Shown here piece after piece: positions 21,001 through 39,000 of a stretch of DNA of 64,000 nucleotides. Made by a program: the position numbers. Every line of letters begins with the position of its first letter. Within the stretch, counting starts at the first letter, position 1. Source of the stretch: Nitrospiraceae bacterium (GTDB taxonomy: Bacteria; Nitrospirota; Nitrospiria; Nitrospirales; Nitrospiraceae); assembly GCA_037442105.1 (NCBI GenBank), contig JBBIQV010000003.1, positions 63,670-127,669 on the forward strand. The letters run 5' to 3'.

Positions 21001-24000
21001 CAGCCGGCTCTCGTCATTGTGGAGCCCTTGTTTCAGGACGAAAAGGTTCAGGCGTGGGTGCATCTGGTGGTGTCGTTGGCGCATCTAAAGGAAGAACGGG
21101 CGCGTGCCATCCAGTACATCGCGTTGTGGGCGCTGGTTCTCCTATGCGTCGGCATTATAGGAGTCGGGAGAGCGTTCAGCCAAGTGTCCAGAATAATCGA
21201 ACACCTGGTCAATCTGCTTCACATGCCGCTCAGAGCCGTGGAAGAAAGTTTAGGGCTTGGACCGCACTCCGCTGCATCGTTGCGCGCCGCTCACGTCGAG
21301 CGCAAAGACTTCGAGCGAGTGGTGGCGCTGGCGCACAGGACCGTCGAAATGCTGACGAAACAATCGCTGGCGGTGAAGGAATTGACGCAGTCGCTGGAGG
21401 AGAAAGTCGCGCATCGTACGCGCGACCTCGAATTGGCCCGGGATGAAGCGTTGGCCGCGGCCCATGCGAAGGCGGCTTTTCTCGCCACCATGAGTCACGA
21501 GATTCGGACTCCGATGAACGGCATCATCGGATTTACCGACTTGCTTCTCGACACCGGGATGACTGCGGAGCAACAGGAATATCTACGAGTCGTGCATCGA
21601 TCCGGAGAGCATCTGCTCGAACTGATCAATGACATTCTCGATTTCTCAAAAATGGAAGCCGGAAAGGTAGAGCTGGAGGCGGTAGACTTCGATCTCGGAG
21701 TCTTGATCGAAGACGTGGTTGCGCTGTTCGGGGAGCGCGCCGAGTCGAAGGGGATCGAGCTGGTCAGCCTTGTGCATGCCGGTATTCCGATGCAACTCCG
21801 AGGCGACCCCGGAAGATTGCGCCAGGTGTTGGTGAATTTCGTCGGGAACGCCATCAAGTTTACGGAACGAGGAGACGTGACGGTTGAAGTCAAAACCGCT
21901 TCCTCGCAGCCCTCAGGACTCAATTCTCCACACTCCGGGGAATCGCTCCTCCACTTTGCCGTGACGGACACAGGCATCGGTCTGACGAGCGAGCAATGCG
22001 CGAAACTGTTCGAGCCGTTTACGCAGGCGGATATTTCCACGACACGCAAGTACGGAGGGACCGGCCTTGGTCTTGCCATCTGCAAGCAGCTCGTCGACCT
22101 TATGGGGGGAACAGTCGGGGTGGAGAGCGTGCCCGGGAAGGGAAGCACGTTTTGGTTTACGGCCAAATTCTCGCTCCAAGATGGGGCCGCTGTTCCCCAA
22201 TCCCCGATTACCGGACTCCTCGATCATCAGAAGGTGTTGATTGCAGATGGTCATGCCGGCAATCGGCGGGTTTTGGATATTCATCTGAAAGCCAAAGGGA
22301 TGGTCGTGGAACAGGCCGAGACAGGGACCTCGGCCCTTCAGCGCTTGCGGGAAAGCGCATTGCGAGGTGCCTCGTTCGATCTCGCCGTTCTAGACATGCA
22401 GATGCCTGATATAGACGGACTGGAGCTTGCCCGCCGCATGAAGGCCGATCCCGCGATCCGTTCCGTCCGTCTCGTGCTGGTCACGTCTCTCGCAAGGCGG
22501 GGCGACGGCAAACAGGCCCAGCAAGCGGGCATCGCAGCCTATCTTGTAAAACCCATCAGGCAGTCCCAACTGTATCGGTGTTTGGAATTGGTTTGTGCCC
22601 AGCCTCTTGCCGCCGAGTATTCGCCTGAAAAAGCCCGGCCTCCGCTGATCACCCGGCATACGCTTTCAGAAATGCAGGCGCAAGACGCTCCGGTTACTTT
22701 GCTGGCGGAGGATAATCCGGTGAACCAGAAAGTTGCCGTGAAATTTCTTGAGAAGTTGGGATGTCGTGCGGAGGTCGTCACCACCGGCCGGGAGGCGGTA
22801 GATGCCGCAATGCGCCGATCCTATGCGCTGGTCTTTATGGACTGCCGGATGCCGGAGATGGATGGATTTGCCGCGACGGCGGAGATCCGCAGGCGAGAGG
22901 CGATGGACAAGGAGCTGGCGGCGGACAAAGGAGAAGAAGGCTCTTCCCTCTCGTCTCGTGCCGCGCGCCACGTGCCTATTGTCGCCATGACGGCCAATGT
23001 GATGTCTGAGGACCGCGAACGCTGTTTGGCGGCCGGTATGGATGATTTTCTGGGCAAACCGATCCGTTTCGAAGAGCTACGTGCCGTCCTCGACCGCTGG
23101 CTTGCCAGACAGGACGCTGCCGGGTAGCCCGCCGAGTCCGTTATCGACGGGGATACTCCAGCGTGATCGTTATCTCGCCTGTCGGCGGCACGTCGATCTC
23201 ACGAGAGAGGTTGCCGAGCGACTCATGCCACACCTGCAGACGCCGGTGTCCGGACGGAACATTGACGATCCGGAACTCGCCTCGCTCGTCGCTGACGTCA
23301 AAAAAGGGATGGTCGAACCCGATGCGATAGGCGTGCATGAACTTATGCGCGTCGCATTGGACTCGATACAGACCGGCTTTCTTGGTCTGCTTGATGATCG
23401 GTCTGCCGCCCGCGGGAAGCGCGACGTTCAGGACCGTCCGCTCGTCGTTGTACACGTGCGTGTTGTGCATGATGGGATCGTCGTTCGTTACCTCGAGGGG
23501 ATTGCCCGTCTGGAAGGCACCGATCCGCGGCACGAATCGGCACTGCTTGTTTTGAATTGTTGTCGTGGCCTGTTGGGCCGCAGCGGGCGGCGCCTGGCTC
23601 ACCTCCACGCTGATGACGGCATTGTGCACCCCGCGTGTTTCGCGGTTTACGACTAACGGATCATCGGTAACCGACGACCCACAGACTTGGCTGTCCCGTG
23701 TCACCGGCACGGCCATCGGTGGCGGGACTGTCCCGGAAAAGACGACGCGACCGGTGATGGTCGCCCCTCCTTGGTCGGCCATGCCGAGCGGCTGAGAAGC
23801 AACGATGGCGCAGACCATCACCCAAGCGATCGGCCATGCCGGCCACGCATTGCGGCGAAACGGTGTCCGAGAACACACGCAGCAAGAGAACATGGTTACT
23901 CCCTCCGTTCGGAAGAAAGAGACAGCACGTAGTAGACCAAGTCCCATGCCTCCGCCTCTTTGTCTCTAAGGTAATCAGCGTAGGACGGCATCGGTGTCCC

Positions 24001-36000: not shown

Positions 36001-39000
36001 CCAAAACCTGGCAATTGGGCGGTGATGTTCGGATGAACCGGATCTCCGGCACCTCCGCGACCAACTGTCTGGTGGTGACTCCTGGGACCAGTGTGGTTTT
36101 TCAGAACCCTAATGCCGTGACCGACGCACCCTGTTCCCTCCAGGCGCTGCCTGGGACCGGCGATATCTGGACCTATACCGTCCAGGCCATCGGGACAGAT
36201 GTGCCGTTTCAGAACAGCACGTTCGTTATGAACGGCAGTTATATCAACAGCCCGACCTACCAAGGCCAGTCGTTGTCTCTGAATTCTCTCGGACGATTCG
36301 GCCAGAAGTGGCAAGTGGACACGTTCGTCACCCTCTATCATCAGAAGGACAGTACCAATATGCGCTTGTATCGCGTGACGCCGTCTTTGCGCATTGATTA
36401 CCGGTGGCTCGACAGTTGGACATTCGAGGCGGCGGGAGGGGTAGAGAAGACGATCACCGACAGCCCAACCCAGCGCGACTCGATTCTCCGGCAATTCTTT
36501 TTCTTTGGTATTCGGTGGGACTTCTCATAAAATCATCCCTGGATCATCTTGAACGATGCTTGAAGTAGCCAACCTGAGTTGCAGTCGCGGAGACCGCCGG
36601 CTCTTTTCGGGAGTGACGTTTACGGTTCAGCCTGGCGGCGTGTTGTGTGTCCAAGGAGACAACGGAATCGGTAAGACCAGTCTGTTGCGTTTGGTCTGCG
36701 GATTGATGTCGCCGGAGGAGGGATCGATCAGGTGGCAAGGGACGGATATTCGCCAGTGGCACGAACGCTATGTCGCCCAGTTGATCTATGTTGGACATCT
36801 CAACGGGCTCAAGGATGACCTCACACCATTAGAGAATCTGCGGGTCTCGTCCCTTCTGGCGGGCGAGAGGCTCCCGCTCGAATCAGTTGGGGCGGCATTG
36901 ACCGCTATGGGTCTAGACCGGTCCGCTCATCTGCTGCCCACGAGCGTGTTATCTCAGGGACAGAAGCGGCGAGTGGCGTTGGCCCGCTTGTGGAGTCTCA
37001 CGCGCCCCTTGTGGGTTCTCGACGAACCTTTCGCCGCGCTTGATGCCGCTGCTGTAGATCTCTTGACTCGGCGTTTGCAGGCACATGTGAGTGCCGGCGG
37101 CATGGTTGTGCTGGCTACCCACCAGGAGGTTGACGTTGCTGCCGATTGCGTTCGCCATTTGAGGCTGACCGGATGAGCCGATCCGGAATGTTCTTGGCCG
37201 TTCGAGGGATCATTTGGCGAGATCTTCTGCTGGCCTTGCGACGACGCTCGGATCTGATGACGACCGTCTTGTTCTTCGTCATTGCCACCAGCCTGTTCCC
37301 GCTGGGGGTCGGACCAGATCAAGCGGTGTTACGGATAACCGCCCCAGGGGTATTATGGGTTGCCGCTCTGTTGTCCTGCATGTTGTCGTTGAGCCGGCTT
37401 TTTGCAGGGGATTATCAAGATGGCACACTGGAACAAATGCTGGTGACTCCTCAGTTGCTCGCGGCGCTCGTGACCGGCAAGGTGTGTGTGCACTGGCTTG
37501 TGTCCGGATTGCCCATCGTCCTGCTCGCGCCTCTGCTTGGATTACAGTTCGGCTTAGGAGGTGAATCGTTATGGGTGTTGACTCTGTCATTGCTGCTGGG
37601 CACCCCGGTGCTGAGTTTGATTGGATCGATCGGCGCAGCCCTCACGCTTGGCATCCGAGGGAGCGGCCTACTGATGGCTCTCTTGGTATTACCGCTGTTC
37701 GTACCCGTTTTGATTTTCGGGGCCGGCGCGGTGTCGAGCAGCATGGCCGGGATGGGGGTGGAAGCCAATTTCTCGCTGTTGGGCGCGTGTCTGGTGCTGG
37801 CGCTTGGTCTGGCGCCATGGGCCACCGCTGCGGCGTTGCGCATTGCCATGGAGTAGCCCGCATTATTCATGAAGCTTCTGCTGCAAGCGCGGATATGCGG
37901 CTGCAACGGGCAGTCTCGGCGCTCAGCCCTTCAACATACTGCGCGAGTATGCTTCAGGGCTTCGCACCTCCGAGTGCCCGTTTCGCTTCGCATCTGCGCG
38001 CTTTCGCGACGAACCGTCATGAATAATGCGGGCTAGGAGCTTTCCGATGAAGTTGCCGGGCATCAATTGGTTCAGATTTTCGTCGCCCCAAGCGTTGTAT
38101 CCGCTTGCGGGATCACTCATCCCGTGGTTCGCCTTCGCTGCGGTGCTGTTCATCGTCATCGGCCTCTACATCGGCTTCTTCGTGGCCCCCACCGATTTTC
38201 AGCAGGGCGACGCGTACCGAATCATCTTCGTCCATGTGCCGGCAGCTTGGATGTCGATGTTCCTGTACGTGGTGATGGCGGGCTGGGCGGCCTTAGGACT
38301 GGGGTTGAAGGTGCGACCTTCTTTCATGATGGCGCAAGCGGTCGCGCCTACTGGTGCGATGTTCACGTTTCTTGCGCTGCTGACCGGTTCTCTGTGGGGC
38401 AAGCCTACCTGGGGAACTTGGTGGGTGTGGGATGCGCGGCTGACCTCGGAGCTGATTCTGTTGTTCCTGTATTTGGGTACGATATTGTTGCATGCGGCGA
38501 TTGACGATCCACGGCGTGCCGATCGTGCCAGCGCCGTCTTCGCGGTCGTCGGCGTCGTGAACGTGCCGATCATCTATTTCTCCGTTCAGTGGTGGAACAC
38601 ACTGCATCAAGGAGCGTCCATCAGCGCGACGGTGGCGCCGAAGATGGCTGCGATCATGGTCGCAGGAATGTTGCTGGTGGCGGTCGGGTTCTGGATGTAT
38701 AGCATTGCCGTGGCGCTCACGCGTCTGCGCTGTGTGGTCCTCGAGCGCGAACGTCATGCCTCCTGGGTCCAGGAACTGAAGGTGGGCTGATGGCGTGGGG
38801 AAGTCTCTCGGAGTTTCTCATGATGGGTGGATATGGACTCTACGTGTGGCCCTCGATCGGAGCCACTGCCCTGAGCATGGGGTGGGAAGTGCTGGCTTTG
38901 CGCCGACGGCGCGCTACGGCGGTTCGTTCAGTTCCTCAGCAGCGAACGGTTGAAGGTAAACAACGATGAGCCCACGCCGGAAACGGTTTGCGATGATCGG

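Follow-up and report, generated by a model that had tools for sequence, protein, structure and literature searches.

The window analysed here, a stretch of 64,000 nucleotides from a Nitrospiraceae genome, carries a porin-cytochrome cluster of the PCC3 type which, on balance, we read as a five-part conduit that would span both membranes and have its cytoplasmic end on NAD(P)H. Its products probably form a haem-protein chain that reaches from the cytoplasm to the cell surface, and a fifth gene suggests that NAD(P)H feeds this wire, rather than membrane quinones only. The reading is based on genes, motifs, predicted folds, topology signals and co-occurrence; cofactor binding, contacts between the parts, the outer position of the repeat cytochrome and activity we infer. 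The features are, by position in the window and strand:

23141..23947 (-), exported protein of 268 aa, in the Cyc2 cassette and outside PCC3
23896..24669 (-), dihaem class I cytochrome c, 257 aa, two PF00034 domains, two CxxCH
24673..26043 (-), Cyc2, a fused monohaem cytochrome-porin, 456 aa, one CxxCH
26133..28139 (-), sensor kinase with PAS and HisKA_3 domains (Pfam), at the head of the Cyc2 cassette
28242..29831 (-), TPR and peptidase-MA protein (Pfam)
29898..31697 (-), PCC3 periplasmic multihaem cytochrome, 599 aa, 24 CxxCH
31713..32669 (-), PCC3 inner-membrane protein (IMP), 318 aa, both W-x3-H-x13-H motifs
33016..34160 (+), PCC3 outer multihaem cytochrome, 11 visible CxxCH
33490..33589 (no strand), placeholder gap of 100 N within the repeats, an assembly artefact and no true break
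34185..36530 (+), outer-membrane protein, 781 aa (AlphaFold model)
36556..42417 (+), cytochrome c maturation system I: ccmA, ccmB, ccmC and ccmF, with putative ccmE, ccmG and ccmH
42414..43694 (+), ccmI/cycH (TIGR03142, PF23892)
43698..45023 (+), membrane-anchored Fe-S/FAD/NAD(P)H oxidoreductase, 441 aa, the proposed fifth PCC3 part

An earlier note had delimited the feature as 23141..36530; the ORFs lie where it located them, but its right end is short, as the conserved module reaches 45,023.

The PCC3 cluster and its neighbours

By sequence and modelling, the cluster has the PCC3 components: a predicted barrel, a 24-haem cytochrome, a repeat-rich cytochrome and a dual-motif IMP. Its assignment to PCC3 by the earlier note agrees with the barrel model, the haem counts and the IMP motifs. 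The IMP carries WFRLH-x13-H at 117, WHVLH-x13-H at 293 and SGIIG at 158; all three had been noted before, with the two His motifs placed one residue off (116 and 292). Five membrane helices are predicted, with conserved His 121, 135, 297 and 311 and a cytoplasmic helical insert at about 166-289 (AlphaFold model, pLDDT 85.6), and among 150 homologues both His motifs occur in 140 and SGxxG in 148. The NOX/ferric reductase (FRD) superfamily, including MsrQ, has two H-x13-H pairs, on helices 3 and 5. His spacing and topology of the IMP fit such an FRD/NOX-like dihaem cytochrome b with predicted haem binding, a likeness also stated in passages of PMC5566968. No Pfam FRD match to the IMP was found. 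A fold search with its model gave nothing at E <= 0.001 and helical-bundle matches only (Z <= 10.6), and a profile search of solved structures nothing under E 0.04; these nulls argue neither for a new fold nor for one that differs. The Atlas cluster 'Ferric reductase like' scored 0.96 against the IMP, with no Pfam family in common.

The periplasmic cytochrome, whose ORF and motif count were confirmed, starts with a hydrophobic stretch and consists of three-haem repeats of about 68 aa (on average 25 aa per haem); its relatives hold 24-27 haems. Downstream of it, in 14 of 17 genomes, follows the TPR-peptidase, which is kept in Nitrospiraceae loci only and has a 40% paralogue on contig C6. The repeat-rich ORF likewise lies where it had been reported, with at least 11 CxxCH: five and six flank the 100-N gap, and the repeat is 47 aa (141 bp) with two haems. 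Read depth over the repeats is 5-8 times that of the flank, and the two-haem repeats are collapsed in the assembly gap, which none of the compared contigs bridges. Relatives hold 13-29 haems. The N-terminus is signal-peptide-like, and a surface location is putative. The outer-membrane protein comprises a signal peptide, a beta-sandwich (38-145), a linker, a TPR part (199-299) and a barrel (306-780), modelled with 22 strands and no plug (pLDDT 78.8), and the barrel-like C-terminus suspected earlier agrees with this model. All top fold matches were barrels, the best at Z 17.5 (rmsd 4.6, 378 aligned); MtrB was among the matches (Z 13.9, rmsd 7.3, 351 aligned).

Of the 371 family genomes, 54 have the barrel (53 of the 370 others), 18 of them with amoA, in line with the wide occurrence in Nitrospiraceae claimed before, where the IMP had been counted in 49 of 370. 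Among 11 named barrel relatives, 10 are titled Nitrospira, Nitrospiraceae or Nitrospirales and one 'Nitrospirae bacterium'; four-gene loci of unassigned source match the window at 33-62% identity. A chimeric contig or recent import finds no support, because GC is level across the stretch and the locus genes group within the Nitrospiraceae clade. Neither nxrA/B nor amoA was found in the source genome (completeness 86.7%), so the label of a nitrite-oxidiser relative, given earlier, rests on kin with NxrA-like genes (G047, G038, G299). Beyond those of the locus, the genome has just five large multihaem ORFs, with 5-8 motifs each.

Judged by its sequence, the Cyc2 identification is genuine. The fused cytochrome-porin with one N-terminal CxxCH and its dihaem neighbour were confirmed, and the protein shows the defining AxPxFAR[Q/K][T/Y] before CxxCH, PxL after it and a length above 365 aa (PMC8406198). 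It shares motif, single haem and length with described Cyc2. Among these, Nitrospira cluster 3 Cyc2 has a function called uncertain in both PMC8406198 and 10.1101/2024.12.25.630300. No solved structure related to Cyc2 by sequence was found. The gene order with the sensor kinase is repeated in L236 and L245, where the 268-aa protein also recurs beside Cyc2; this protein has no match in Pfam/NCBIfam and four paralogous matches on three other contigs. Homologues of Cyc2 occur in 43 of 371 family genomes. Its inclusion in the module had to be given up: only 19 of the 54 barrel-positive genomes carry this Cyc2, which lies within about 12 kb in about 4 of them, and it is absent from the congener G047 (99% complete), which makes it a loosely linked accessory. 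Neither the type II secretion genes nor the multicopper oxidases were accepted as module members (0 of 17 neighbourhoods); a close MCO2 orthologue is absent from G047, G045 and G038. A promoter scan was uninformative (9 found, 6.5 expected).

Within the ccm operon, CcmF exceeds its NCBIfam cut-off and CcmA, B and C match annotated plasmid genes, while three genes in 36556..42417 are putatively ccmE, ccmG and ccmH. Where ccmA-H are missing, ccmI remains at the locus. As a separate observation, four comammox genomes have ccm operons linked to hao, and these nest among the island ccm copies.

The anchored flavoprotein

The proposed fifth part has an N-terminal membrane anchor, an Fe-S dicluster-like domain with six Cys (CxxSxxC and an invariant CxxHxxC) and a circularly permuted FAD-NAD(P)H domain similar to TrxR, FNR and YpdA. 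Best among the solved relatives of the flavin part are 7a76 (E 3e-30), 7a7b, 2zbw and 5ygq; the protein stays below the cut-off of the YpdA model (170 bits against 340). Thioredoxin reductase has a redox-active CxxC in its NADPH domain. The flavin part has no CxxC in 49 of 49 sequences and is therefore no TrxR-type disulphide reductase.

Of the family genomes with the barrel, 53 of 54 also have the flavoprotein, as do 8 of the 317 that lack the barrel; these counts include kin genomes, so that the cases are not independent. It lies on the same contig within 12 kb in 43 of the 53 and on a separate contig in G596 and G635, and is retained in 20 genomes where the gap to the barrel is below 4.5 kb. 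In this window its gene stands directly after ccmI, 11 kb from the IMP. Among IMP loci of non-Nitrospira type from metagenomes (at least 800 bp upstream), 41 of 42 have it, 40 of them divergent and adjacent. The link recurs in four gene orders, namely in Nitrospiraceae, family f18 (7/7 loci), family f22 (5/7 loci) and a Bacteroidota plasmid (48% identity). One foreign flavoprotein has its close relatives in Methylotenera/Methylophilaceae, and Methylotenera is among the genera listed for PCC3 in passages of PMC5566968. By sequence, the flavoprotein is the best-conserved part of the module: in 10 full foreign loci, mean identities to the window are 61% for it, 55% for the periplasmic cytochrome, 46% for the IMP and 36% for the barrel. 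Nearly every locus pairs the flavoprotein with the IMP, a pattern that suggests NAD(P)H at the inner end; the correlation between their trees seen in the mirror test (r 0.89) is a consequence of co-inheritance.

Complex prediction weakly supports a contact between IMP and flavoprotein. The pair scored 0.46 against 0.00 for the best control, with at least 71% of contacts common to the runs and partner pLDDT of at least 75. Among solved pairs 116 of 157 come up to the mark, and among mismatched pairs 2 of 215; scores up to 0.60 hold only 18 of the 157 solved pairs, yet both mismatches. Longer IMP forms (4 matches in 8000 candidates) included none fused to the flavoprotein, weak evidence either way, nor was a fusion found in the 22 scanned of 150 IMP representatives. 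Remoter IMP-like genes adjoin or fuse with Fe-S/flavin modules (L111, L206, L212-L214), and partial IMP matches in genus g30 are another small-cytochrome cluster (L108, L109).

Proposed electron route and alternatives

In the five-part conduit, electrons would pass from NAD(P)H to the FAD of the anchored flavoprotein (43698-45023) and on to its Fe-S clusters, then to two b haems of the IMP, through the 24-haem periplasmic cytochrome to the 22-strand barrel, and via an outer cytochrome of about 20 haems to an acceptor outside, be it Fe/Mn oxide, humic matter or a second cell. The conduit may be likened to a split NOX/ferric reductase lengthened by a haem wire, and the adjacent Ccm operon would mature its 45 or so c haems. 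The potential of NAD(P)H is about -320 mV; transfer from it to most outside acceptors is downhill, which transfer from Fe(II) to NAD(P)+ against the membrane potential is not. On these textbook potentials, electron export (as redox valve, for anoxic survival or reductive iron uptake) is probably likelier than lithotrophic uptake through the NAD(P)H end. Against the NAD(P)H reading stands the high price that a nitrifier would pay in NAD(P)H.

The 2017 model, which the earlier note followed, is a four-part conduit by which the quinone pool exchanges electrons, via the IMP, with Fe(II), Mn(II) or minerals outside, with the flavoprotein as optional second input or neighbour; it seems to us somewhat unlikely here. 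The motif resemblance of the IMP to dihaem cytochrome b, in passages of PMC5566968, agrees with it. G465 and G566, genomes of a single genus and each 99% complete, have the four PCC3 genes but lack an orthologue of the flavoprotein; the four-gene wire can therefore exist alone, and the IMP may hold a quinone site. The Cyc2 cassette also lies near the cluster in G000, G274 and G291, three tandem multicopper oxidases stand in the window, and one PCC3 IMP of Sideroxydans CL21 is up during iron oxidation. However, the IMP has no known quinone site, it adjoins the flavoprotein in nearly all foreign loci, and Cyc2 is confined to the minority of genomes given above. Moreover, the PCC3 IMP genes of Sideroxydans ES-1 are not Fe(II)-induced (log2FC -0.8, about -1.6 vs thiosulfate) and its PCC3 proteins are flat across conditions.

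Less probable still is that the wire is real while the flavoprotein supplies reductant for haem or thiol reduction, via the IMP or otherwise, in maturing haem-rich cytochromes. Such a role would suit its place after ccmI in one gene run in Nitrospiraceae, where it stays with ccmI, and the ccm or ccsA genes flanking several foreign loci, but most foreign loci have it beside the IMP with no ccm gene within the examined stretch, the protein lacks CxxC, and it stays with PCC3 where ccmA-H adjoin hao. Very improbable is a periplasmic or surface electron store in place of a conduit, with a barrel that exports or anchors the repeat cytochrome but carries no electrons: 22 strands against 26 in MtrB, a lipobox in just 1 of 25 loci and a variable haem number of the outer cytochrome would suit it, but the modelled barrel has no plug, the outer cytochrome gene is immediately upstream of the barrel gene in 30 of 30 loci, and the four genes stand together in 14 of 17 genomes examined.

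Relation to known systems and meaning for Nitrospiraceae

Described PCC3 clusters (PMC5566968; Gallionellaceae, PMC9900912) have the same four genes, both IMP motifs with SGxxG, a five-helix IMP and 21-27 haems in the periplasmic cytochrome (24 here), at about 24-25 aa per haem. Unlike the proteobacterial ones, the present cluster belongs to another phylum and has IMP and periplasmic cytochrome transcribed away from outer cytochrome and barrel, with ccm operon and TPR-peptidase attached and the flavoprotein present. The 2017 main text (PMC5566968) is silent on the flavoprotein, with no match for ferredoxin, thioredoxin or flavo. That PCC3 had not been seen in Nitrospira, as claimed earlier, is too strong, since an EET system termed 'pcc-like' has been reported in a MAG called Ca. 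Nitrospira defluvii (PMC6137239); a search by title and abstract start, with most subscription journals outside its coverage, gave no paper on PCC3 in Nitrospira or a PCC3 flavoprotein. PCC4 and group-1 PCCs share an IMP-like protein with neighbouring redox genes, a ferredoxin-NADP reductase gene lying near 7 of 11 such clusters (PMC13264449), but have 4-, 5- and 10-haem cytochromes and no outer cytochrome, and the oxidoreductase of PCC4-like loci is an 800-aa Pyr_redox-cNMP-4Fe4S protein, not an anchored 441-aa form. Manganitrophaceae have porin-dodecahaem clusters, PCC_1-3, of which PCC_1 is confined to that family according to the published report. MtrCAB/MtoAB likewise combine barrel, periplasmic and outer multihaem cytochromes, but with 26 strands, decahaem cytochromes and quinol-linked CymA; no locus protein matched their families over cut-off. 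NOX/FRD share the two H-x13-H pairs and the proposed path from NAD(P)H over FAD and haem b to the outside, whereas here the flavin module would be separate, of TrxR fold with Fe-S clusters, and the output a c-haem wire. From its nearest solved kin, TrxR-type ferredoxin-NADP reductase and YpdA (Bdr), the flavin part differs in being permuted, anchored and fused to an Fe-S domain.

In groundwater, sand filters and soils, Nitrospira are the dominant nitrifiers, and electron exchange with solids is not known for them. The predicted conduit is a concrete target, conserved as it is in 54 of 371 species genomes, of which G038 is closed. The fifth gene would alter the model for all PCC3, as NAD(P)H would be a soluble substrate with which the complex could be assayed in vitro, and it cautions against PCC3 as a marker of iron oxidation. 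Maturation system I has been described as a comammox trait (10.1101/138586); if the ccm result holds, its source there is explained, and non-comammox relatives have it too. Tentatively, then, PCC3 may be the first Gram-negative porin-cytochrome conduit to run on NAD(P)H bypassing quinones, acquired once and early in Nitrospiraceae, persisting in about one-seventh of species including comammox, and serving electron exchange of nitrifiers with minerals, humics or partner cells, with its Ccm operon later recruited to the hao locus. If so, an EET island would have supplied the haem-maturation system of the complete ammonia oxidisers.

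Parts and distribution of the PCC3 cluster

The open reading frames, motifs and assembly gap described in the earlier note were borne out by re-inspection. Contig C3 has a level GC along its length, and neither nxrA, nxrB nor amoA was found in the host genome (G000, 86.7% complete). Among five genomes searched, NxrA-like genes were present in G047 (a congener of the host), G038 and G299 and not found in G045. Near-identical DNA occurs in one subsurface run, perhaps its source, and two hot-spring runs, the latter two resembling one data set.

The 781-aa outer-membrane protein was modelled (pLDDT 78.8, 74-row alignment) as a signal peptide, a beta-sandwich, a linker, a TPR part and a barrel. 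By its list of elements the barrel has 22 strands, and it lacks a plug; fold searches with it (Foldseek, VIA-align) returned outer-membrane barrels. In the model of the inner-membrane protein (IMP; pLDDT 85.6), five helices span the membrane, and a long helical insert separates helix 4 from helix 5. Since the loop preceding helix 3 holds four K/R and no D/E, this loop and the insert are placed in the cytoplasm. The assembly gap falls within a 141-bp repeat of the outer cytochrome that encodes two haems. The depth of contigs of this repeat is about 5-8 times that of the flank, which suggests roughly 19-25 haems in total; depth of this kind does not equal copy number.

Barrel matches occur in 72 of 371 family genomes (E <= 0.001). 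Of these, 54 have matches that are long (E < 1e-120) and are termed barrel-positive; the other 18, with short matches, were excluded. Barrel-positive genomes spread over eight genera, amoA is present in 18 of them, and the barrel is absent from genus g30 (0/39 genomes). All named barrel relatives (11 loci) bear the title Nitrospira, Nitrospiraceae, Nitrospirales or Nitrospirae. The four PCC3 genes form one cluster in 14 of the 17 genomes fetched, the exceptions being two clusters interrupted by a contig end or gap and genome G152, without an IMP within 10 kb. DUF6502 (window 45097-45951) and DUF5666 (18591-19559) genes recur next to PCC3 in Nitrospiraceae and in foreign loci.

Across 401 genomes sampled from the phylum, families f18, f4, f6 and f10 also proved to hold four-gene clusters, and in family f22 the IMP adjoins 37-68-haem cytochromes. 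Quick trees place the Nitrospiraceae IMPs (SH-aLRT 99) and flavoproteins (SH-aLRT 100) each in one clade (10 of 49 rows), separate from f18 and f22. The sister group of the flavoprotein clade (support 95) includes relatives named Methylotenera; the IMP tree leaves this relation open, so no donor is claimed.

Seven f22 loci (L102, L103, L104, L105, L106, L209, L210) encode an IMP, then one giant cytochrome with 37-68 CxxCH (the largest, with 68 haems, in L102), a 420-aa protein without Pfam match and usually the flavoprotein. Three loci of Nitrospirales genomes (L111, L212, L213) hold PCC4-like clusters of a 4-haem cytochrome, a Pyr_redox-cNMP-4Fe4S protein, an IMP-like protein and two 10-haem cytochromes. 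Natural fusions also occur: cNMP-binding and 4Fe-4S domains are joined to an IMP-like domain in L206 (8886-11414, minus strand), near a Pyr_redox-FHA-2Fe2S gene, and multihaem cytochrome domains to IMP-like domains in proteins P0408 and P0409. Two g30 loci (L108, L109) encode a short IMP-like protein (205-214 aa) among small cytochromes of 1-7 haems and one Fe-S protein; such short proteins explain many partial IMP matches.

A predicted fifth part

Beyond the boundary drawn in the earlier note, a 441-aa flavoprotein (window 43698-45023, plus strand) follows ccmA-I. Its N-terminal membrane anchor is followed by basic residues and its Fe-S dicluster-like domain has six Cys, in CxxSxxC and an invariant CxxHxxC. 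The flavin part is TrxR/FNR/YpdA-like, with its C-terminal segment relocated to the front, and contains no CxxC in any of 49 sequences.

Matches occur in 63 of 371 genomes, or 61 after excluding two at 34-35%; 53 of the 61 are also barrel-positive, and 309 of the 371 have neither gene, in counts that include kin and hence are not independent. The metagenome set comprised 80 loci, 66 with a non-Nitrospira-type IMP and 42 of these with enough upstream DNA; the flavoprotein was found in 41 of the 42, divergent and adjacent in 40. It flanks the IMP in 7/7 f18 loci, comes after the large cytochrome in 5/7 f22 loci, separates the IMP gene from those of the cytochromes on an Emticicia plasmid, and is the most conserved part across ten full foreign loci. 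Two genomes 99% complete (G465, G566) have PCC3 without a flavoprotein orthologue, which counts against a fifth part. Complex prediction for the IMP with the flavoprotein scored 0.46 (best control 0.00; shared contacts at least 71%, pLDDT at least 75). Of 157 solved pairs 116 reached the mark, as did 2 of 215 mismatched ones; among those that reached it at or below 0.60 were only 18 of the 157 solved pairs, and both mismatches. The predicted complex weakly favours the flavoprotein as partner. Taken together, there is a strong genomic case for a predicted fifth, NAD(P)H-facing part of PCC3.

From genes, motifs, models and linkage, the cluster may be read as a split NOX/ferric-reductase-like entry to a haem wire. 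Electrons would pass from NAD(P)H through FAD to the Fe-S clusters of the flavoprotein, then over two b haems of the IMP to the 24 c haems of the periplasmic cytochrome, and through the barrel to the outer cytochrome. The IMP may also hold a quinone site, giving both NAD(P)H and quinone inputs. By redox potentials, electron export from NAD(P)H is downhill and uptake from Fe(II) to NAD(P)+ is not. Data from Sideroxydans ES-1 fit a role independent of Fe(II) oxidation (PMC8788666, PMC11429942), whereas those from CL21 mildly favour the opposite, a link to Fe(II) oxidation (10.1101/2025.02.27.639646).

Cyc2 and neighbouring genes

The Cyc2 protein fits the motif definition in passages of PMC8406198, and 43 of 371 genomes carry homologues (19/54 barrel-positive, 24/317 others). 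In the host, G274 and G291, no more than about 12 kb separates the kinase-Cyc2-dihaem cassette from the cluster, and in G306 from a flavoprotein copy; in these three relatives it stands on the opposite side of the cluster from that in the host. It is 550 kb from the cluster in G038 and was not found in G047. The Cyc2 reported earlier next to PCC3 is borne out at this locus; it recurs beside the cluster but is not one of its subunits.

Upstream in the window lie:

740-6502, plus strand: three tandem multicopper oxidases (MCOs), of which the third carries Ig-like and LamG-like repeats
7070-8875: subtilisin, after the multicopper oxidases
9390-18594, plus strand: type II secretion-like operon with a secretin match, between the multicopper oxidases and the Cyc2 cassette

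A three-gene MCO match was found in G566 (47%) and in none of G047, G045 and G038; PMC5566968 describes three extracellular MCO genes in tandem in Sideroxydans ES-1. In the host, export of the MCOs or of the outer cytochrome could run through the secretion-like operon, which was not next to the PCC3 cluster in 17 relatives. A 427-aa protein (51882-53165, minus strand) has a weak match, below cut-off, to haem-copper oxidase subunit I.

Cytochrome c maturation, comammox and earlier reports

The host carries both system I, at the PCC3 locus, and ResB. All 18 amoA-positive genomes fall within the 20 with a short barrel-to-flavoprotein distance; the other two, without amoA detected, have a completeness of 71 and 78%. 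From all 23 long-form genomes amoA is absent. PCC3 barrel and amoA share a contig in G291 (C32, about 47 kb apart) and G288 (C52, about 35 kb), and locus L038 has a ccmC remnant between barrel and ccmI.

A ccm operon lies in an amoA or HAO-type contig region in four of 14 stretches fetched (L232, L233, L234, L240; comammox). Three of the four have a doubled ccmI, a clade B mark in passages of 10.1101/138586. In a 19-row tree whose rows exclude ammonia oxidisers and clade A, these copies nest among the PCC3-island copies (100/100 against four outgroup rows). Monophyly of the 15 island copies was rejected (p-AU 0.009) under a simple model, for a group named after the first tree was inspected. 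The trees offer a lead towards a PCC3-island origin of comammox Ccm.

Passages of PMC5566968 define PCC3, in Proteobacteria; its text does not mention the flavoprotein, nor was Nitrospira found in its supplement text (eight files, whose table bodies may not be part of that text). PCC3 of Gallionellaceae is treated in passages of PMC9900912. Elsewhere, likewise in passages, are Nitrospirae cytochromes that hold as many as 49 motifs (PMC6730927), PCC_1 limited to Manganitrophaceae (PMC9040806), and 7 of 11 PCC4-like clusters with a ferredoxin-NADP reductase nearby (PMC13264449, whose Figure 6 or Table S2 may show a Nitrospira PCC). Passages of 10.1101/2024.12.25.630300 cover Cyc2 and not PCC, and no PCC mention was found in PMC13741234. 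Passages of PMC6137239 attribute to a MAG under the name Ca. N. defluvii a 'pcc-like' system, which may be the same as the present cluster. To judge from its sequence, the cluster is a real PCC3 in a phylum new to PCC3, half-noticed earlier in the literature. To this come the case for a predicted NAD(P)H-facing fifth part and a lead on where comammox Ccm may have originated.
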